This document shows, one piece after another, positions 2,444 to 24,055 of a stretch of 32,000 nt of DNA. This DNA is from Candidatus Methanoperedens sp. (GTDB lineage: Archaea; Halobacteriota; Methanosarcinia; Methanosarcinales; Methanoperedenaceae), in contig JAPZAR010000034.1 in assembly GCA_027460535.1 (NCBI GenBank), positions 1,945-33,944 of the forward strand, read 5' to 3'. Positions within the stretch are counted from its first letter, which is position 1, and every line of letters starts with the position of its first letter. The translations under genes and the position numbers were made by a program. The notes under the pieces are model-generated. The model was not told where the DNA came from, made no database searches, and worked only from the letters and a program-made list of their open reading frames with translations.

Positions 2444-3709
2444 TCATATGCTTTTTATCTCCGGCCTCTTCGCCCTCTCGAACTTCCACTTCTTGCTCAG
2501 ATCCATCGTGGCATCTATACCTACCTTTGTCCCGATGCCGTTTTCTGAACGTGGATCAAGCGTGCTTCCCCTCACTTCGGGGTAAATGTATATGTCCTCA
2601 TCGCCCTTAACGCGGGTCGCGATCGCGAACTCGATATCATTAGGGTCGAAAATATCAATGTCATCATCCACCACAACAACGTGTTTTAAGCTCTTGTGAA
2701 CCGCGAACGCGGCATCAATGGCTTTCTTTGCCTCTTCGTCATTGTTCTTATGGATCTGCACGGCTGCATGGAAATAGCAGCATCCTCCCGGGGTGAGGAC
2801 CACGTTCCTGACATCAGACACTTTTTTTATTTCTGAGTATATCAAAGGCTCATAAGGAACCCCCATGAGAATATGATGCTCGCCTCCTGCAGGCAGGAGA
2901 GCATGATAAATGGGATCATGTCTGCACATCATTTTTGTGAGATAGATGACGGGCTGTTTCCTGATGATATCAAAGGTACCGCTGATATCTACAAACGGTC
3001 CTTCATCCGCAAGTTCAGTAGGATGTATATATCCTTCGAGCACGATCTCGGCGTGAGGCACTTTGATGCCGTTCTCGCACTTAAATAACTCGATAGGTCT
3101 GCCCGAGAGGGCTGAGGCGTAATTGAATTCCTTTCCCTCCGGCACGCGCGTTGAGACCGCGAACAAAGTCACTGGATCGATGCCTATGACGATGGCGACT
3201 GGAAGCGCTTCGCCCTTCTCAGATGCTTTCCTGTAAAGGTTGTAGGTATGGCGAAATTCAACAAGGCGCGCGGCGAGTTTGTCCTTACCTATAACCCTTA
3301 ACCTGTGGATGGAGGCATTCATCACTCCATCGTATTCGGAAACAATGACACCGGAGGTGATGTAAGGGGCCCCGTCACCTTCAAAATGGGTAAGTATGGG
3401 AAGCTTCGAGAGGTCGGGTTCTTCTACAACCTCTCTTGCAGGCGAATCATGAACAATCTTTATTTTTCCATCCATATCGCGTGAAGAAAGGTATCTTATT
3501 ATATTCTCGGGGGAAACACCCAGTGCGTTCGCAAGCAATTCCCTTGAACCGAGAAGATTCATTATGACCTTTGAGCCATTGACATTGGTAAACAGGGTCG
3601 GCTCCTTCCCGACTGAGGCCGAAACCTCAAAGTGCGGGGAGAGGGGTTTACTGACCTCCGTAATTTTCTCTTCCGATCTCAGCTGCTCTATGAATCCCCT
3701 GAAACTCAT
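2444..3709 (-). CDS. ubiD: UbiD-family prenyl-FMN-dependent decarboxylase, probably trans-anhydromevalonate-5-phosphate decarboxylase
   Basis: 421 aa, the short archaeal UbiD size. Family-typical segments are APYITSGVIV, CCYFHAAVQIHK, VVVVDDDIDIFDPNDIEFAIATRV and GTKVGIDAT. Its ATG overlaps the ubiX stop (ATGA at 3706-3709). Confidence 0.9.
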   Translation of the reverse strand: MSFRGFIEQLRSEEKITEVSKPLSPHFEVSASVGKEPTLFTNVNGSKVIMNLLGSRELLANALGVSPENIIRYLSSRDMDGKIKIVHDSPAREVVEEPDLSKLPILTHFEGDGAPYITSGVIVSEYDGVMNASIHRLRVIGKDKLAARLVEFRHTYNLYRKASEKGEALPVAIVIGIDPVTLFAVSTRVPEGKEFNYASALSGRPIELFKCENGIKVPHAEIVLEGYIHPTELADEGPFVDISGTFDIIRKQPVIYLTKMMCRHDPIYHALLPAGGEHHILMGVPYEPLIYSEIKKVSDVRNVVLTPGGCCYFHAAVQIHKNNDEEAKKAIDAAFAVHKSLKHVVVVDDDIDIFDPNDIEFAIATRVKGDEDIYIYPEVRGSTLDPRSENGIGTKVGIDATMDLSKKWKFERAKRPEIKSI

Positions 3710-4269
3710 TCACGCCACCGTCTGTACAGGTTATGCTCGATTGCCAGGAGATCCAGGGCACGACCCGCCATGAAATCAATGATATCATCAATAGACTTAG
3801 GTTTTGGATAAAATGCCGGACAAGCTGCAAGGATTGATGCCCCCGCTTTTGCCGCCCTTCCCATGTTCTCGATATGGATCAAATTGAGGGGTGTTTCCCT
3901 TACCATCAGTACAAGAGGATGTTTTTCTTTCAGGCACACATCGGCTGCCCTTGATATCAGCGTATCAGACATCCCGATCGCTATCGAAGCCAGAGTCTTC
4001 GTGCTGCACGGCGCCACTATCATGCCTCTTGACCTGTGAGAGCCGCTCGCTATGGGGGCAGTAAAATCATCATCGTCGTAAACATTATTGCTCAATTTCT
4101 CTACCTCTTGCATTGAAAAATCAGTTTCGATCTGAATGAGTTTTTTTGCAGATTCTGAGATGACCAGATGCGTCTCAAATTCTTTCATGTCTTTTAGAAC
4201 TTCAAGAAGTCTTATGCCATACTGTACTCCCGAGGCACCGCTAATGCCTATAATTATCTCATTATTCAT
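3706..4269 (-). CDS. ubiX: UbiX flavin prenyltransferase (prenyl-FMN synthase)
   Basis: 187 aa. IIGISGASGVQYGIRLLEVL and APCSTKTLASIAIGMSDTLISRAADVCLKEKHPLVLMVRETPL are classic UbiX/Pad1 segments. It is translationally coupled to ubiD. Confidence 0.9.
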   Translation of the reverse strand: MNNEIIIGISGASGVQYGIRLLEVLKDMKEFETHLVISESAKKLIQIETDFSMQEVEKLSNNVYDDDDFTAPIASGSHRSRGMIVAPCSTKTLASIAIGMSDTLISRAADVCLKEKHPLVLMVRETPLNLIHIENMGRAAKAGASILAACPAFYPKPKSIDDIIDFMAGRALDLLAIEHNLYRRWRE

Positions 4270-12659: not shown

Positions 12660-13322
12660 ATGGATACCGTCTCACTTCGGCGCAGGGTAGAACGGCTCAT
12701 ACATACACATTCTCGAACATATATCCCTGATATCCGTGATTCCGGCTTCTCCTGCGCACGCTGCGGATGGTGCTGCAGGGAGAATTTCATGATAAGGATA
12801 ACGCAGGATATCCTGCGTCCCTCAAATGCCATCTCGATTTTCCCCGATGACGTCAGGAGGATAATGAAAGGAACCGGATTGCTGTGGGATGATGTGGCCC
12901 AGCCTGATATCTATTCCTGCCTGTCTGTTGGGGAAAACATGCTGGCGATCGGCTGGATACTGAGGCGCAATGATGCGGGAGACTGCATCTTCTACAGGAA
13001 AAACGCATGCACGATATACGAATGGCGCCCCATGATATGCAGGTGCTATCCGTTTTTTATGAATGAACGGGGGATCGAGGTCATGCGCTGCGAGGGGCTT
13101 GGCAATAAAATTATTGAACAGACCGCTCAGGAGATCGGGTATATTGTGAAGAGGTATGAGATAAAAAAGCTGCAAAGTTACATCAGTATTATGGAACAGA
13201 TCGGGGATATGATGGATCTTGCCAATCTATGCTCACTTCCACAAGATTACCCTGGCAGTGTTCCCGTCTACGATGGAGAGTCGATAATAGCGGCGACTGT
13301 GGAACGCAAAGTTAAAGCGTGA
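12660..13322 (+). CDS. YkgJ-family (CxxCxxCC) zinc/iron-chelating cysteine-cluster protein
   Basis: 220 aa. It carries FSCARCGWCCRENF (CxxCxxCC) and a second Cys group, CTIYEWRPMICRCYP. Confidence 0.75.
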   Translation: MDTVSLRRRVERLIHTHSRTYIPDIRDSGFSCARCGWCCRENFMIRITQDILRPSNAISIFPDDVRRIMKGTGLLWDDVAQPDIYSCLSVGENMLAIGWILRRNDAGDCIFYRKNACTIYEWRPMICRCYPFFMNERGIEVMRCEGLGNKIIEQTAQEIGYIVKRYEIKKLQSYISIMEQIGDMMDLANLCSLPQDYPGSVPVYDGESIIAATVERKVKA

Positions 13323-13518
13323 TTCTCGCATACTCAAGCGCTTTTTTCGCATCGTCGATATCGAGGTTGATTTGAATTTTATACTCTTTTAATAAGTCTA
13401 TATATTCAGATATTGAAAGCCCCGCGATTTTCGCTCCAGGACCAAGACTGACTTTACCGCGTTCATAAAGCTCGATCGATTTCATTTTCCTGCCTTCATC
13501 AATCAGCTCCCGCAGCAA
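13312..13518 (-). CDS. UPF0175-family small protein (antitoxin-like)
   Basis: 68 aa. SIELYERGKVSLGPGAKIAGLSISEYIDLLKEYKIQI matches the UPF0175 pattern as I remember it. Its 3' end overlaps ykgJ by 11 nt, convergently. Confidence 0.65.
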   Translation of the reverse strand: MLRELIDEGRKMKSIELYERGKVSLGPGAKIAGLSISEYIDLLKEYKIQINLDIDDAKKALEYARITL

Positions 13519-13525
13519 TATGCTG

Positions 13526-13795
13526 TCACAAAGACAGCTCCTTTTTCAACTTATCCCATTGAACATTTTCTCCTTTAAAAGATTCTTTTTTCAATTGTTC
13601 AATCTCCTCAAGTTCTGATTTAGAAACTTCTTCCTTCGGTATGATTATGTCTTCGAAAGTCTCAAGTTTTTTTCTTACCCTTACTATTTCTTTATATACC
13701 ATTGCCAGCGAGACTTCATTTTTAGAAGATGATATTTCGGTCATGTTCAATAATTGACTTTCAAACGTTAAATTGTTTTCTTCCAATAAAATCAC
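13526..13795 (-). CDS. Small acidic helical hypothetical protein
   Basis: The track start is a GTG at 13795. An internal ATG at 13744 (MTEISSS...) is more plausible. It has a charged helical C-terminus (EEVSKSELEEIEQLKKESFKGENVQWDKLKKEL). Confidence 0.45.
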   Translation of the reverse strand: MILLEENNLTFESQLLNMTEISSSKNEVSLAMVYKEIVRVRKKLETFEDIIIPKEEVSKSELEEIEQLKKESFKGENVQWDKLKKELSL

Positions 13796-13828: not shown

Positions 13829-13903
13829 TGGGATAGCGCGGATTTGAACCGCGGTCTAAGCGTCCCAAACGCTCAAGGATGGACCAGGCTACCCTACTAT
13901 CCC
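13829..13903 (-). tRNA. tRNA-Pro (anticodon UGG)
   Basis: The reverse complement is GGGATAGTAGGGTAGCCTGGTCCATCCTTGAGCGTTTGGGACGCTTAGACCGCGGTTCAAATCCGCGCTATCCCA. The acceptor stem is GGGATAG/CTATCCC and the T-arm is CGCGG-TTCAAAT-CCGCG. The anticodon stem GAGCG/CGCTT closes the loop TTTGGGA (anticodon TGG, G37). No encoded CCA. The junction between the D and anticodon stems is slightly irregular in my hand fold. Confidence 0.85.
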
Positions 13904-13931
13904 GTCGGGCGTCTAACTAACAGCCTGATAA

Positions 13932-13939
13932 GATAAAAT
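13932..13939 (-). promoter_or_regulatory. TATA-like box upstream of tRNA-Pro
   Basis: ATTTTATC (minus-strand reading) lies 29-36 nt upstream of the mature tRNA 5' end. Confidence 0.35.
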
Positions 13940-13959
13940 CTTTACCCTCATTAAAGTAA

Positions 13960-14205
13960 TTATTCACGACATTTTTCTTTCATGCCCTGCTTTATGCCCC
14001 ACGATGCCCACATCAAACCCAGTATGGCTATCACTGCCAGAAGCACGACCAGGATAACGGCTATCTTTTGAAAAAGGCTGAATGAAGAAGCGAAGAATGC
14101 AACATAAATTATTGCAAAGATCAACCCGCCGAATAAAACTACTATGGATACAGCAACTCTTGGCGCAAGTCCCGGCGGCACTTCCCGGCTTTCATTTTGG
14201 TTCAT
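13960..14205 (-). CDS. Small two-TM membrane protein
   Basis: 81 aa with two long hydrophobic helices (VAVSIVVLFGGLIFAIIYVAFF, IAVILVVLLAVIAILGLMWA). Confidence 0.5.
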   Translation of the reverse strand: MNQNESREVPPGLAPRVAVSIVVLFGGLIFAIIYVAFFASSFSLFQKIAVILVVLLAVIAILGLMWASWGIKQGMKEKCRE

Positions 14206-14406
14206 ATATTATGCACCTCCTGCCAATCGGATTTTTATGCAATATTATCCACCACTCTTGTACAATGAACATATTTCTAAAACAGTTTCGCTCCCCAATA
14301 AGATTATATGACGGCTGAAGGAGTAATAGTTTTCGATGTAGTTAGGGACCTTTCAAATATACAACAAACCGCAGATAAACGCAGATTTGTTGCTCTTCAG
14401 AAGCGG

Positions 14407-14450
14407 GAGATGCATATTACAAAAAATTATATGCAATTTTCAGTAATATA
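14407..14450. repeat. 44-nt repeat copy A, ending 1 nt before the stop codon of gene 14452..14943
   Basis: GAGATGCATATTACAAAAAATTATATGCAATTTTCAGTAATATA aligns without gaps to 15196..15239, with 36 of 44 positions identical by my hand count. Confidence 0.65.
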
Positions 14451-14451
14451 A

Positions 14452-14943
14452 TCAGGACTCTGACGATGGCCTTTTTTCCCTCAGGCTTGCAATTGATTTT
14501 TCTATATTGGCTTTATATTCGTCTAAATAACGGACTTTGTTGATTGTACTTAAGGCTCTAATGCTTCTAATAAAACCTAACAAATAAAGTAATGTACTCA
14601 TTATACCGATTACAAAGTTAAGAATTATTACAGAATACGAATTTAACATACCGATATAACTATATCCCAAAGTTGTTAATGCGCCAGCAAGAGAGAAAAA
14701 TACCAAAACCTGCAAAATTGAAGTCGAAACCAAATATGATAACTCTTGGGAATTCGAATATTTAGATATTTCTTGAAGCTCTGACTCAAGTTCTTCTATT
14801 CTTGCTGTTGCACTACTTCTTGACCATGCAGCAATCCAATTTTTGACGATGGGTGTAACCAGGTTTCCAATTACAGATAGCAAAACCGCACCTAAGAGGG
14901 ATATTGCCCAGTTAATTTGGTTTAATAAATCGAACAAAGCCAT
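14452..14943 (-). CDS. Membrane protein (163 aa) with an N-terminal TM helix, a short coiled segment and a C-terminal TM bundle
   Basis: ATG at 14943. It has the hydrophobic helices WAISLLGAVLLSVIGNLV, ILQVLVFFSLAGALTTLGY and VIILNFVIGIMSTLLYLLGF, and the charged helix ATARIEELESELQEISKY. AT-rich, with no family recognised. Confidence 0.6.
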   Translation of the reverse strand: MALFDLLNQINWAISLLGAVLLSVIGNLVTPIVKNWIAAWSRSSATARIEELESELQEISKYSNSQELSYLVSTSILQVLVFFSLAGALTTLGYSYIGMLNSYSVIILNFVIGIMSTLLYLLGFIRSIRALSTINKVRYLDEYKANIEKSIASLREKRPSSES

Positions 14944-15195
14944 AATCTCTTCCTCGACATATGTATTACTTAAATTTCATATTAATAAACTTTTGGTTTC
15001 GATAACGAAGGAAAAGGAAAAAAGAAGAATGTACCTGCTTTTTATTGCAGTGCGCCCTATAGAAACGGTCTATTTCTGCAGATAGGTAATAGGATGCTTT
15101 GCATAATAAAATCCAACTGAGACCCTTTATGCGAAGAAGGAAAAGGAAAAAATGAGACCGTTTCAAATCGTGTGGTGAATTGAGACTATCTTTAA

Positions 15196-15239
15196 GAAAT
15201 GAATATTAAAAAAAATTATACGCAATTTCAAATAATAGA
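15196..15239. repeat. 44-nt repeat copy B, ending 1 nt before the stop codon of gene 15241..16041
   Basis: GAAATGAATATTAAAAAAAATTATACGCAATTTCAAATAATAGA sits at the same offset from its stop codon as copy A. Confidence 0.65.
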
Positions 15240-15240
15240 G

Positions 15241-16041
15241 CTACTTCTTTATAGATGGAAATTTAAATTTTAATTGATTTATAATTGCATCATATGATAC
15301 TTCATACTCTGTTCTATAATCCGCTGGGTGAGGAATTTTTCGATTAATAATAGGAATCTCAATATGAATATCAGTTTTTTCATTGTATGTATATTGATTA
15401 AAATAAGTTATATCTGTTATTGGTAATTTTAGAACATTTCCTATAAATAAACAGAAACCAAAGGGATAGTGAATAAATTCAGAAAGTAAATAAAATCCTC
15501 CATTTTCCCATAGGCCGACAATTCCAGAATTGAATAAAATGAGTTCAGTAGTAAGATACATATACACTGAAAAATCAAATGGAAAATTCTGTGAATCTTT
15601 TTGTAAAAGATAATCTTTCAAATCAGGATGAGCCAGTTGAAAATTATTTCCATTTCTTGAGCAAAATATCGCAATTACTTGCTTAAAGAAACGAAGAGGA
15701 TGTACATCCTGTAGTATTATTTCAATAGGTTTTGGTTTTCCAAACATCCGATTATCTGATAAATTACCCCGCTTCATATTATTCGACAAAATCATAGTCC
15801 ATTTTTTGTATTCTTCGCCATATAGATGACCTGTAATGTTATTACAGCTTGAACACAGACTATAATTTCCTACACCTTTTTGCTTTAGCTTACCTTTTTT
15901 AAAATATTTTCCTTCTGTGAGCAAAGGAAGCGCTTGAAACTCTTGTGACCGAAAAAAATTGAATGCCTTCTGCGGAGGCGTATGTTCAAATGATAGTTTA
16001 CTTTGTTTTCCACAAATACAACATGTACCATGTTTGCTCAT
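15241..16041 (-). CDS. HNH-like (HNH_5-type zinc-finger nuclease motif) protein with an unknown C-terminal domain
   Basis: 266 aa, ATG at 16041. The N-terminus CCICGKQSKLSFEHTPPQKAFN...SLCSSCNNITG has the pattern CxxC..EHxxP..N..CxxCN of beta-beta-alpha-metal HNH nucleases. The remaining roughly 190 aa are unrecognised. Very AT-rich. Confidence 0.6.
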   Translation of the reverse strand: MSKHGTCCICGKQSKLSFEHTPPQKAFNFFRSQEFQALPLLTEGKYFKKGKLKQKGVGNYSLCSSCNNITGHLYGEEYKKWTMILSNNMKRGNLSDNRMFGKPKPIEIILQDVHPLRFFKQVIAIFCSRNGNNFQLAHPDLKDYLLQKDSQNFPFDFSVYMYLTTELILFNSGIVGLWENGGFYLLSEFIHYPFGFCLFIGNVLKLPITDITYFNQYTYNEKTDIHIEIPIINRKIPHPADYRTEYEVSYDAIINQLKFKFPSIKK

Positions 16042-16308
16042 AGATAATTATCTCATTGACTTTGATATTCCTTGATGATAACAACCAACACTAATTGAAA
16101 CGTCTCTATTCAAGAAATCGTTTCAATACATTTTGGTGAATACATAGCGTTTTTCGCATGATGTTTGGCCTGTGTGACAATATAGCTATAATAGCGATTT
16201 CTATCTTTTCAGGTTTCATTTTATCAATTCATGCTGAGGAGCTGATAAGTATAGCATTCCTAGCCGTTGAAGCACCGGTAAATATCTGAACCCTCATGCA
16301 GAAAAATA

Positions 16309-18594
16309 TCATCCCTTGTACTCCCCGCTCACAACTTCCTTTATCCTGTCCGCTGTCTTTGGCCCCACAAGCCCGACCTCCATCAATTCCTCGCGCGATG
16401 CAGCCATGATTTTTTGCACACTTCCGAAATGAAGCAGCAAGTTCCTTGCCACCGCAGGCCCGATCTCAGGGAGCGAAGAGATAACGTATTCCTGTTGCTC
16501 CTTAAGCGTAAGCGATGTCTTCTTCCCGTGCAGGCTTATTTCTTTCTTTGTATCGCTCTGCTCCCTCTTTGCCATTATATGTATCAGCGCTGCAGTATCC
16601 TCCTCGTCCCTGCTGAAGATGATAGGCACCCCGAAATCAATGGCGATCGAGGCAAGCACCCCGCGTATTGAGTTGGGATGTATCTGCCTTGCAGTATAGA
16701 GCCCTTCGCCTTCAATTACGAGTACAGGCCTTTCAAATGTGCGCGCAAGGTCGGATATCTGCCCAAAAAGGTCCCTTCCATCCATCAGAGTACTCAGGAA
16801 ATCTTCGGCTGTTTTTCTCTCGATACCGACGCGCTCACTTATCACATAGTCTCCAACTTCGAGCGTCTTCAAAACGATCTCAGCGCCAAGTTTTTCAAGC
16901 GTTCGTGCCACGCGGGAACGGATCTCCCTCTGGTCAACGAAAATTCTTATTGGGGAGTTCTCTGGTTGTATGCTCCCCGGGAAATCCAGAAGATTTTTTT
17001 GCCCACCAATATCATCTTTCAACTCATTCGAACTGGAGTCTTCTTTTTTTCTTGATTGGAGTTCAAAGTCGTAATCGAGGTCCTTCATAGCCCTCATCAT
17101 ATTTTTCTCTTTCCTGCTGCTTGTCCAGTGATACGCTTCATCCTTTGAACCTTTAGCCATCAGTATTACGACACGTCCGGCATGTTTTCGTCCAGTTCTT
17201 CCTTTTCGCTGAATGCTTCTGATCTCGGAAGGAACGGGTTCGAAAAAAACAACAAGATCGGTTGCCGGGATATCCAGCCCTTCCTCTGCCACGGAGGTAG
17301 CGACAAGGGTATTGTATTCCCCGTCCTTGAATTTTTGAATGATATCGACCTGCTGTTTCTGCGTCAGGCCGGTATCCTTGTATTTGCTTGCCTGTCCCAC
17401 AAACCTCACGGGTTTTATTCCAGGCACTTCTTTAAGGGATTCTGAAACAAGTTCGGCGGTATCTCTGTAATTGGTGAAAACAATTACCCTTGATTGCGGG
17501 TTCTCAAGGATTTGCTTTTCAACTAATTCCCTGACAAGATTCAGCTTCGGATTATTGCCATTGCATCCCGAGAGGTGGTGCACTGCCTGGCGCATGCTCA
17601 GGTCTTCCATCAGACGCTTGGCAGCTTTGCTCCCGCTTCTTGATAGCGCTTCATTCTCAAGCCTCTCAAAATATTTGGAGAGCGCAGAGACTCCCTGCGT
17701 TTCCGCGATTTCTATTGCATGGCTGACCTTGAAGATCTCGGCAAGGAGCGAGATCCCCTGATATATTTTCTGGTCAGGGAAAGAACGAAGCTGGGACTGC
17801 ATCTTTGCCTGGAGTTCCAGCATTTCCCTTTTCGATAATCTTTTCTGGTAGGGAGATATGAATTTAAGCTCATGTAATTTATTGAGTCTGTCAGAGAGGA
17901 CTTTATCCATCAATTGTTTCAGTCCTTTGATCTCAACCGGAACCGGGACATATTTCCATTCGATATCCTTATCGAAGACATATGGTCTGACATCAGGGTC
18001 AGAATCCGTTCGCATCTCGACCGAAGTGATATGAAGGTTTGCACAGACTTCCTGTATCCTTGCAGGGTCGCTGCCCGGACTTGCGGTTATTCCCAGAACC
18101 AGTGGTTCCTTATTCTGCTGCGCATATTTCTCCGCAATGTAAACATACGAGTAATCGCCTGTTGCCCTGTGCGCTTCGTCAAAAATTATGCATGAGACAT
18201 TTTCAAGGTTTATTTTCTTTCCCAGGATATCATTCTCAATGACCTGAGGGGTTGAAACCACTACCCTGGCATTTTCCCACATGGAGGATCGTTTCTCCGG
18301 CGGTGTGTTGCCGGTGAACAGGACTACTTCTTCCAGAGGTATATTGAGGGTATTTTTAAAAAAGGCGGCATGCTGTTCCACGAGAGGTTTTGTTGGGGAG
18401 AGAATAAGGACTTTTCCTCTGGAAAGCCGAGAGACTATTACAAGCAGGGCGATGATGGTTTTCCCGAGCCCCGTCGGAAGGACGATGAGAGTGGATTTAT
18501 TTATGGCTTCCCCTGCAAGAGATAGCTGATATAATCTCTGCTCGACTGTAGCTGGCTTAATAAGAGGGTGATTAATATACTGCGTATCGCTCAA
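16309..18594 (-). CDS. hef: Hef: helicase-associated endonuclease for fork-structured DNA (SF2 helicase + ERCC4 nuclease + HhH2)
   Basis: 761 aa. Helicase motifs are LPTGLGKT, FDEAHR and RKGRTGR. The ERCC4 signature is GDYVISERVGIERKTAEDF. The C-terminal helix-hairpin-helix pair is GPAVARNLLLHFGS and LVGPKTADRI. The start is a TTG at 18594, with no in-frame ATG before the conserved HPLIKP segment. Confidence 0.95.
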   Translation of the reverse strand: MSDTQYINHPLIKPATVEQRLYQLSLAGEAINKSTLIVLPTGLGKTIIALLVIVSRLSRGKVLILSPTKPLVEQHAAFFKNTLNIPLEEVVLFTGNTPPEKRSSMWENARVVVSTPQVIENDILGKKINLENVSCIIFDEAHRATGDYSYVYIAEKYAQQNKEPLVLGITASPGSDPARIQEVCANLHITSVEMRTDSDPDVRPYVFDKDIEWKYVPVPVEIKGLKQLMDKVLSDRLNKLHELKFISPYQKRLSKREMLELQAKMQSQLRSFPDQKIYQGISLLAEIFKVSHAIEIAETQGVSALSKYFERLENEALSRSGSKAAKRLMEDLSMRQAVHHLSGCNGNNPKLNLVRELVEKQILENPQSRVIVFTNYRDTAELVSESLKEVPGIKPVRFVGQASKYKDTGLTQKQQVDIIQKFKDGEYNTLVATSVAEEGLDIPATDLVVFFEPVPSEIRSIQRKGRTGRKHAGRVVILMAKGSKDEAYHWTSSRKEKNMMRAMKDLDYDFELQSRKKEDSSSNELKDDIGGQKNLLDFPGSIQPENSPIRIFVDQREIRSRVARTLEKLGAEIVLKTLEVGDYVISERVGIERKTAEDFLSTLMDGRDLFGQISDLARTFERPVLVIEGEGLYTARQIHPNSIRGVLASIAIDFGVPIIFSRDEEDTAALIHIMAKREQSDTKKEISLHGKKTSLTLKEQQEYVISSLPEIGPAVARNLLLHFGSVQKIMAASREELMEVGLVGPKTADRIKEVVSGEYKG

Positions 18595-23426: not shown

Positions 23427-23774
23427 TCAGAGGTTCTTATTTCTCCCAACCAGTATTTTTATCTCTTTTTTCAATTCAGGAATATCTTTTCTTACGGTGT
23501 CCCAAACAGCATCCAAATCCACACCAAGATAATCATGGACCAGCTTATCTCTCATCCCAGCCATTTTCCTCCATGGTATATCCGGATATTTTTCTCTCAT
23601 CTCGGTGGATACTCTTTTTGTGGCTTCCCCTACTATTTCAATCTGCCTTACGACACCATCTTGAACCAGATTATTATCCATAAAATCGTCATAGTCCAGG
23701 TCTATGGTATATTCCTCGATTCGGGATATAGCATCCAGAATGTGTCTTAAATAAACAATATCATCTTTCTTCAT
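23427..23774 (-). CDS. hepT: HepT (DUF86/HEPN) toxin, second copy
   Basis: 115 aa. MRDKLVHDY carries Rx4HxY. Its ATG overlaps the MNT stop (ATGA at 23771-23774). Confidence 0.85.
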   Translation of the reverse strand: MKKDDIVYLRHILDAISRIEEYTIDLDYDDFMDNNLVQDGVVRQIEIVGEATKRVSTEMREKYPDIPWRKMAGMRDKLVHDYLGVDLDAVWDTVRKDIPELKKEIKILVGRNKNL

Positions 23775-24055
23775 TCGTAAATTACCTTCATCTCCTTTTT
23801 TATCCTGTCAATCAAGTAAGGACTAATGGACTTTTCAGTCAGCAAATCGACTTTCATACCAAGTGCATCGGAGAGATCCTGCTCTATTCCCACGAGATCG
23901 AGCAGACTTTTCCTCTCTGAAAATTCGACAAGGATATCTATGTCGCTTTTTGGCCTCTCTTCGTCTGTTGCGTAAGAGCCAAAGATGGCTACCTTTTTTA
24001 CGCCGTATTTTTTAATGAGAGAGATGATCTTTTTAAAGAGGGCTTCTTTGTTCAT
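23771..24055 (-). CDS. mntA: MNT-type nucleotidyltransferase antitoxin, second copy
   Basis: 94 aa. AIFGSYATDEERPKSDIDILVEF carries GSX10DXD. Confidence 0.85.
   Translation of the reverse strand: MNKEALFKKIISLIKKYGVKKVAIFGSYATDEERPKSDIDILVEFSERKSLLDLVGIEQDLSDALGMKVDLLTEKSISPYLIDRIKKEMKVIYE

Follow-up and report, generated by a model that had tools for sequence, protein, structure and literature searches.

A 44-nucleotide repeat behind unrelated AT-rich genes of Candidatus Methanoperedens: a candidate end element of mobile gene modules

The 32,000-nucleotide (nt) stretch of Candidatus Methanoperedens sp. contig JAPZAR010000034.1 (positions 1,945 to 33,944; GenBank assembly GCA_027460535.1), referred to below as the window, contains two tandem AT-rich genes, coding for an HNH-like protein and a small membrane protein, that end in two copies of the same 44-nt repeat. 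This repeat appears to be the core of an element of ~75 nt, here designated E, which recurs in other archaeal genomes. The reading preferred here, tentatively and with somewhat less than even confidence, is that E marks the ends of mobile gene modules, carries a terminator, and resembles the repetitive extragenic palindromic (REP) sequences and miniature inverted-repeat transposable elements (MITEs). E would then make up the 3′ end of AT-rich modules with a single gene each, a small family whose members move from site to site in Candidatus Methanoperedens genomes; two of them would lie in tandem within a 2.4-kb insertion between the genes for Hef and tRNA-Pro. Once in place, the core would act as the transcription stop of its module, through a run of six to eight T residues at position +26 from the stop codon. 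E itself would be, or descend from, a short mobile or recombination-prone palindrome of the REP/MITE type that came to rest after genes unrelated to one another and at the margins of AT-rich islands.

The repeat and the organization of element E

A preliminary description of this DNA had counted 36 identical positions in an ungapped alignment of the two 44-nt copies, and this count holds for copy A, behind the HNH-like gene, and copy B, behind the membrane-protein gene (Table 1). When the AT-rich island was shuffled 300 times with its dinucleotides preserved, the best 44-mer match had on average 27.5 identical positions, with a maximum of 31, and none of these AT-matched controls reached 36. 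Both copies begin 1 nt past the stop codon of a minus-strand open reading frame (ORF), TAG at 15241-15243 for copy A and TGA at 14452-14454 for copy B, which is the common offset reported earlier. They are in direct orientation, 789 nt apart, on either side of the membrane-protein gene.

The core of E is an imperfect palindrome of 31 nt with 9-nt arms and a T-rich 7-nt spacer, the latter varying among the copies from 7 to 8 nt (a 9-7(8)-9 geometry). In the complete element, the core, AAATTGCRTATAA-T6-8-TAATAYKCAT, is followed by ~20 nt and then by a 27-nt hairpin, designated H; conservation is highest in the left half, as far as the T run. This run is T8 (15208-15215) in copy A and T6 (14421-14426) in copy B, in both cases at +26 from the stop codon. 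Direct repeats of 8 to 9 nt flank the body of E in copy A (ATTTGAAA, 15233-15226 and 15168-15161) and in locus L024 (ATGATGAAA; loci outside the window are given by their L numbers), and their sequences vary by site. Folding, suggested earlier as a check, gave a divided answer: copy B has a stable predicted fold (-11.5 kcal/mol, z-score of -3.95), whereas copy A folds no better than its shuffles (z-score of +0.56).

Copy B is followed, at 14362-14392, by a palindrome of ATCTGCG-type heptamers (CAACAAATCTGCGTTTATCTGCGGTTTGTTG) that has a match of 19 to 20 nt in L027 (3765-3796). Similar ATCCGCG-type repeats are found in L018 (~1255-1335), at the opposite end of an E-bearing island. These repeats represent a second repeat family.

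Insertion between the hef and tRNA-Pro genes

The ORF next to the island encodes a protein of 761 amino acids (aa) that combines DEAD-box helicase, ERCC4 nuclease, and helix-hairpin-helix (HhH) domains, i.e., the Hef architecture. Its best homologues are 74 to 85% identical to it, and some of them are named Candidatus Methanoperedens by their sources; the host of the window is a Candidatus Methanoperedens chromosome. Two sister loci, L112 (Hef 85% identical) and L113 (83%), display empty sites, with the tRNA-Pro gene ~45 nt past the hef stop codon. In L112, tRNA-Pro is followed by the genes for a CxxCxxCC protein and LplA, the same as in the window. Neither of these sister loci was found to contain E. 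Given that both lack the block as well as the element, the 2.37-kb block is, compared with these sisters, an insertion, or else was lost in both of them, and E arrived with the block. A comparison of strains for the presence of the cassettes had been proposed in the preliminary description; the difference from the sisters extends to the whole block. The G+C contents of the genes in the block are 30% (HNH-like), 35% (membrane protein), and 45% (an 81-aa protein); that of hef is 47.5%.

An 8-nt direct repeat, ATGAGGGT, is present at both ends of the insertion (16290-16297 and 13944-13951) and may represent a duplicated target or a crossover core, the sisters being too diverged for a decision. 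No recombinase or transposase gene, including those for IntI-like or other tyrosine recombinases, was found among the 30 ORFs of the window that were scanned (36 to 38 with repeat scans against other libraries included), in agreement with the earlier reading of this DNA. A tblastx comparison of the E-bearing loci with the window found no conserved synteny.

Table 1. Positions of the features discussed in the text (numbering of the window)
Feature	Position	Strand	Description
Copy A of the 44-nt repeat	15196-15239	-	Core palindrome 15199-15228, AAATTGCGTATAA-T7-TAATATTCAT
Copy B of the 44-nt repeat	14407-14450	-	Core 14410-14440, AAAATTGCATATAA-TTTTTTG-TAATATGCAT
Insertion, ~2.37 kb	~13944-16308	.	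From the hef stop codon to the tRNA-Pro promoter; not in L112 or L113
tRNA-Pro (TGG)	13829-13903	-	Conserved right-hand neighbor of the insertion
Hairpin H of copy A	15160-15186	-	GTCTCAA-TTCACCACACGAT-TTGAAAC; holds the 5′ motif (15159-15180)
Partial H with inverted partner	16084-16141	-	ATTCACC-N8-TTGAAACG (16119-16141) and partner (16084-16102)
10-nt inverted repeat	15062-15164	.	GAAACGGTCT / AGACCGTTTC, arms 83 nt apart; the 3′ end of H forms one arm
HNH-like ORF, 266 aa, 30% GC	15241-16041	-	Large unnamed family of ~260-aa proteins
Membrane-protein ORF, 163 aa, 35% GC	14452-14943	-	Three hydrophobic segments (hydropathy)
Predicted BRE/TATA promoter of the membrane-protein gene	14980-14996	-	CCAAAAG-TTTATTAATA; conserved in L036

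BRE, transcription factor B recognition element.

Copies of E in other genomes

The preliminary description had left room for the repeat being confined to this locus; extended matches were detected in at least 7 other loci from related archaea. The core 23-mer alone identified five independent loci in Methanoperedens or close archaeal assemblies, in each of which the match is longer than the search pattern. The copy in L020 is identical to copy B at 31 of 31 positions, with the homology covering exactly the 31-nt core and the flanks being unrelated. In L024/L027, the match to copy A spans 72 nt and runs through the 27-nt hairpin GTTTCAATTTACCACACATGATGAAAC (window positions 15186-15160). Most copies consist of the core without H. 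H is found 140 nt downstream of the core, past an inserted stretch, in L017, and a weaker version of it follows a 78-nt insert in L029. The left and right arm variants assort among the copies in all four combinations, and each copy adjoins a stretch of 24 to 32% GC in a background of 45 to 50% GC. Matches to the 23-mer in Flavobacterium and in L028, L031, L034, and L035 were set aside as a conserved coding site or chance. Scans of the viral collection for the core and for H returned chance matches only, and a blastn search with the island found nothing in the phage and plasmid collections.

The position next to a stop codon, raised earlier as a question for other copies, is common to part of them. 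E starts 0 to 16 nt past a same-strand stop codon in the window (twice) and in L010, L115, L116, L036, and L018, but not in L017, L024/L027, or L029. In L018, the TAA stop codon overlaps the start of the core. In L029, no ORF adjoins E, which lies beside a gene for an IS110-family transposase (2831-3892).

The two gene modules

The cassette mobility that had been proposed is supported, for each of the two modules separately, by their orthologues: the HNH-like gene and, in L036, the membrane-protein gene occur in other contexts, in all cases with the element at the 3′ end. The two proteins are indeed unrelated (BLASTP E value of 1.5). A conserved two-gene system consisting of the HNH-like and membrane proteins was rejected: each gene was found alone elsewhere, and there were no matches in PADLOC.

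The 266-aa protein has no match in Pfam, PADLOC, or NCBIfam. Its homologues share the invariant residues CxxC...EH...N...CxxCN, and members of the family show only sub-threshold matches to HNH_5, so that “HNH-like” seems a reasonable label. Profile matches (E ≤ 0.001) comprise 2,702 representative clusters, and relatives are encoded on six viral contigs. An AF2 (AlphaFold2) model with a predicted local distance difference test (pLDDT) score of 73 matched no fold in PDB for the C-terminal ~180 aa. Orthologues with 83 to 86% identity are found in other contexts in L010, L115, and L116, each with a partly decayed E at the 3′ end and a TATA box, ATATTTTTTATATAAG, ~75 nt upstream of the gene; a more distant homologue (66% identity) lacks E. 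The HNH-like gene in the window is without this TATA region, in place of which there is the upstream palindrome (16042-16069); the gene may consequently be expressed at a low level or by read-through from hef. In L116 (998-1010), the stop codon of the gene is lost and the ORF continues for 7 codons into E, ending at the TGA of ATTTGAAATTGC.

Only four homologues of the 163-aa membrane protein were found. The orthologue P0014 (90% identity) is encoded in L036 in a different context, after another gene, and has kept the promoter CCAAAAGTTTATTAATA together with a variant core of E, whereas the more distant homologues (45 to 49% identity) lack E. A box similar to the promoter of the membrane-protein gene, CCAAAAAGTTATTAAT, is located upstream of a gene for a 347-aa protein in L017. 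In the assembly of another sample, L003, the loss of 1 nt close to the 3′ end of the membrane-protein gene (2290-2300, corresponding to ~14474-14484 in the window) results in a 171-aa ORF that runs into the core of E. In L037, a truncated ORF of the Y2_Tnp family (PF04986, putative transposase; 654-1178) is convergent with the gene for a membrane-protein homologue with 45% identity. Finally, a 17-nt direct repeat, TTTTTTCCTTTTCCTTC, is found upstream of the membrane-protein gene at 15136-15152 and 15007-15023. The ~112 nt between its copies are missing from the corresponding region of L036, and the bracketed stretch looks like a small secondary intergenic insertion or duplication.

Hairpin H and the upstream motif

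The preliminary description had also noted a bipartite motif in front of both genes and had taken it for a 5′ boundary of the cassettes or part of a shared promoter. This motif, CGTTTCAA-N7/8-GGTGAAT, does occur exactly twice in the 32 kb, with 0.00 occurrences expected from shuffles. The second occurrence is where it was reported (16119-16141), and the first is at 15159-15180 rather than 15160-15181, a difference of 1 nt. Its interpretation did not survive. Since the first occurrence is made up of the loop of H and its 3′ arm, it belongs to the E of the upstream gene and not to a promoter; the motif before the membrane-protein gene is the distal hairpin of the E that follows the HNH-like gene. 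Homologues of H of copy A are found in L024/L027, where the hairpin is continuous with the core, and in L017; in these loci, the motif is joined to the core as a single element without either of the two genes. The motif is missing upstream of all orthologues, which have their own TATA boxes, and a promoter role was rejected on these grounds. Thus, the association of the genes with E at the 3′ side, which the orthologues retain, is real and that with the 5′ motif is not, and each gene lineage appears to have acquired E separately. A T6 run (15147-15152) lies beyond H of copy A.

Upstream of the HNH-like gene, the motif takes the form of a partial inverted doublet of H. An inverted repeat had been described there, and it exists, with 19-nt arms (16084-16102 and 16119-16137) that are 79% complementary and form an imperfect 19-bp hairpin (-20.4 kcal/mol, z-score of -3.1). 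This palindrome adjoins a 5′-truncated HNH module, whose homology starts at 16069. In a profile search with H, the partial copies (upstream of the HNH-like gene and in L036 and L029) were not significant alone, and all statements about them are based solely on the exact-block pattern test of the bipartite motif. The second inverted repeat described earlier is likewise there, as a perfect 10-nt pair (15062-15071 and 15155-15164), and its folding z-score is only -1.5.

Element E as a terminator-bearing module end

Oligo-T tracts are termination sites of archaeal RNA polymerase. At the native terminal genes in the window (those for CxxCxxCC, FKBP, and RimK proteins), runs of T5-6 are found between +20 and +26, and both copies of E carry a run of at least 5 T residues on the coding strand soon after the stop codon, namely, the T8 and T6 at +26. 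Such a run is also kept in 5 of the 6 copies that were found via their proteins. The core is therefore a plausible terminator: similarly to the oligo-T terminators of archaea, it places 6 to 8 T residues on the coding strand 26 nt past the stop codon, as at the native terminal genes. The suggestion that the two genes share a promoter and a terminator accordingly stands for its second half, the terminator-like T run, but not for its first, as no promoter part is common to both genes.

In contrast to ordinary terminators, E shows conservation of 31 nt across genes and genomes that are unrelated and is also found detached from gene 3′ ends. A terminator role alone leaves unexplained the 31-nt identity, the gene-less copies, and the direct repeats. 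The identity across contexts, the copies without genes, and the site-varying direct repeats suggest that E is mobile or recombination prone, and the variation of these repeats by site indicates that it may move on its own. Both the terminator role of the core and the mode by which E moves are what we infer from these patterns. E shares several properties with REP elements, including their inverted doublets (REPINs), and with MITEs: it is a short extragenic imperfect palindrome located near stop codons at gene 3′ ends, its partial copies are found in both orientations, including the inverted doublet at 16084-16141, site-specific direct repeats surround two of its copies, and an IS110-family transposase is encoded beside one. 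Unlike these families, E seems to have a very low copy number, no terminal inverted repeats were found for it, and no transposase, either of the REP-associated (RAYT) type or any other, is linked to it in the window; moreover, it goes with foreign AT-rich DNA instead of being dispersed over the host chromosome. No described family that fits E was found.

Several observations weigh against E being such a module end. In L017 and L024/L027, E is on the 5′ side of an AT-rich gene, facing away from it, and in these two contexts as well as in L029, it has no upstream same-strand gene, which argues against a pure 3′-end role. No terminal inverted repeats of E were found. In L115 and L116, the orthologous copies of E have decayed at approximately the neutral DNA rate, which implies that constraint is weak, at least there. 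The exact 23-mer occurs at most once per representative genome, and profile searches of ~173 kb of related loci revealed no further copies. In addition, the strong conservation of those copies that were found by pattern is partly an ascertainment effect.

Comparison with integron and dif sites

An integron-like mobility of the cassettes had been the first interpretation of this locus, and a part of it, mobile modules with a common end element, is supported. The integron analogy and the proposed 5′ boundary are not. In integrons, the attC elements of 57 to 141 nt are bounded by an inverse core site, RYYYAAC, and a core site, GTTRRRY. No such pair was found on either strand of the region 13900-16399, and none of the four GTTRRRY sites there coincides with E. 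In an alignment of 11 copies of E, covariation and pairing were not above the shuffle controls in either hairpin register. Cassettes of integrons are expected to be promoterless, whereas the membrane-protein module and the three HNH orthologues have their own conserved TATA boxes. Accordingly, E was rejected as an integron attC, as core sites and covariation are missing, no integrase is encoded in the window, and the modules have their own promoters.

The likenesses that suggested the analogy nevertheless persist. As in integron cassettes, unrelated ORFs in the same orientation end, right past their stop codons, in an imperfect palindrome, the modules also occur singly in other genomic contexts, and, as in integrase-less attC clusters, no integrase adjoins them. 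The differences lie in the absence of R″/R′ core sites, a stable hairpin in copy A, and covariation, in the promoters of the modules, and in the fact that E also occurs in front of genes, on their 5′ side and pointing away from them. Besides, attC sites are conserved only in structure, and E is conserved in sequence. Integrons are known from archaea (PMC9668308).

Sites of the Xer/dif type, together with the plasmid-borne pdif sites, resemble E in their length (~25 to 31 nt), inverted arms, and short central region. Archaeal dif sites have arms of the form GATATAA...TTATATG, with TTTTGATATAATGTACCTTATATGACAA as the dif site of Thermococcus kodakarensis (PMC11840125), and the arms of E (ATATAA / TATAT) are similar in sequence. 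However, E has the 9-7-9 rather than the 11-6-11 geometry, and the hallmark TAA-N6-8-TTA is found in only 3 of the 11 copies (copy A, L115, and L116). A chromosomal dif site would be a single copy at the terminus; here, two copies lie 789 nt apart within an insertion that the sisters lack, and this candidate was rejected, as the hallmark is mostly missing, too. The plasmid dif modules of Acinetobacter (PMC6449649, PMC13141974) are, like the modules described here, small accessory-gene units bounded by such sites with no recombinase encoded nearby. In contrast to the inverted sites on both sides of pdif modules, the copies of E are direct, the orthologous modules have the core at the 3′ side only, islands carry the site at a single end, and the empty target is without it.

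E may still be a recombination site that belongs to neither class. If so, its core, with two inverted arms on either side of a 7-nt crossover region, would be a site for a tyrosine-type recombinase encoded elsewhere, which inserts, excises, and shuffles AT-rich cassettes; we regard this as unlikely but deserving of consideration. It would account for the 9-7-9 geometry and for arms (GCATATAA...TAATATGC) that resemble those of archaeal dif sites (PMC11840125), for the two direct copies around the membrane-protein gene, for the occurrence of all four combinations of left and right arms, for the presence of E at island edges, and for the homology between copy B and L020 that covers exactly the core. 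The IS110 transposase gene beside E in L029 also fits, as IS110-type elements commonly target recombination sites or palindromes. It is harder to reconcile with the scarcity of the TAA-N6-8-TTA hallmark, the lack of a recombinase among the ORFs of the window, empty sites without E, islands that have E at a single end, and left module boundaries without a core. Furthermore, the spacer length is variable, the right arm has decayed in L115 and L116, and the direct repeats differ by site, unlike the core of an att site. A more far-reaching version, which is doubtful, holds that the core is the site of an undescribed archaeal cassette exchange in which promoter-bearing AT-rich single-gene modules move into and out of Methanoperedens chromosomes, with the recombinase provided in trans by the host or by an element; the exchange may also involve Borg-like elements. 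Such a system would be like integrons and the Acinetobacter dif modules in function and unlike both in its parts.

Regulatory and RNA alternatives

A different explanation for the conservation of E, which we likewise consider improbable, is that it is only a regulatory module, a terminator and perhaps an operator, derived from the homogenized intergenic regions of an AT-rich Borg-like donor replicon, with no role in mobility. The T run at the distance of native terminators, the similar promoter boxes of the AT-rich genes, and the nearly neutral decay of E once in the chromosome all agree with this, as does the G+C content of the modules (30 to 35%), which is close to that reported for Borgs (~33%, compared with 40.6 to 44.1% for Methanoperedens; PMC13444090). 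However, no E-bearing donor replicon was found in the viral, phage, and plasmid collections, three contexts have no upstream same-strand gene, and a 31/31 identity between unrelated flanks and site-specific direct repeats are unexpected for a passive 3′ untranslated region.

There is very little to be said for E being a small RNA gene, in which the core would provide the BRE/TATA promoter and H would be a solitary RNA resembling a repeat of CRISPR (clustered regularly interspaced short palindromic repeat) arrays, comparable to the RNA anti-CRISPRs of mobile elements; solitary repeat RNAs have been described on such elements (PMC10651486). H starts with GTYTCAAT and has TTGAAAC-like 3′ ends, as do many archaeal repeats (TTTGAAAC in copy A, GATGAAAC in L024, ATTGTAAC in L017, and ATTGAAAC in the partial copy upstream of the HNH-like gene). 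Its start is ~25 nt past a TATAAT-like box, a T6 run follows it in copy A, and the left half of E up to the T run is the most conserved. There are also weak matches to CRISPR-DR5 and CRISPR-DR18 of Rfam in the arms of the palindrome upstream of the HNH-like gene. However, with 14.9 bits (E value of ~5), these matches are well short of the cut-off of 40, and none falls on H of copy A; H, at 27 nt, is below the typical length of a repeat; most copies are cores without H; and in L017 and L029, 78 to 135 nt are inserted between the two parts. A known RNA family was rejected, as nothing in the window except tRNA-Pro exceeded the Rfam thresholds. Chance similarity or a duplication confined to the locus, which AT-rich low complexity could suggest by inflating short matches (several of the 23-mer matches were indeed chance or coding), is refuted by the shuffles and by the extended homologous copies in other loci and can practically be dismissed.

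Other features of the window

Compared with L112, the window contains a second insertion, at 13312-13795 between tRNA-Pro and the CxxCxxCC gene, with an ORF of 89 aa (31% GC) and one of 68 aa from the UPF0175 family; these may form a toxin-antitoxin-like pair. Two toxin-antitoxin pairs of HepT and the nucleotidyltransferase MNT are encoded at 829-1483 and 23427-24055, and a perfect 22-nt repeat (1393-1414 and 23995-24016) lies inside the MNT ORF spans of both.

Implications for gene import in Methanoperedens

Archaea of the genus Methanoperedens are methane oxidizers that exchange genes with large extrachromosomal elements. A conserved end element common to unrelated imported genes is a searchable marker for the import of small gene modules into their chromosomes, and E is a concrete candidate for a joint or signal in this process. 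If E proved to be no more than a terminator that travels with foreign DNA, it would still be a useful tag for tracing the donor replicons; if it were a recombination site, it would represent a system of cassettes that belongs neither to the integron family nor to that of the dif modules.

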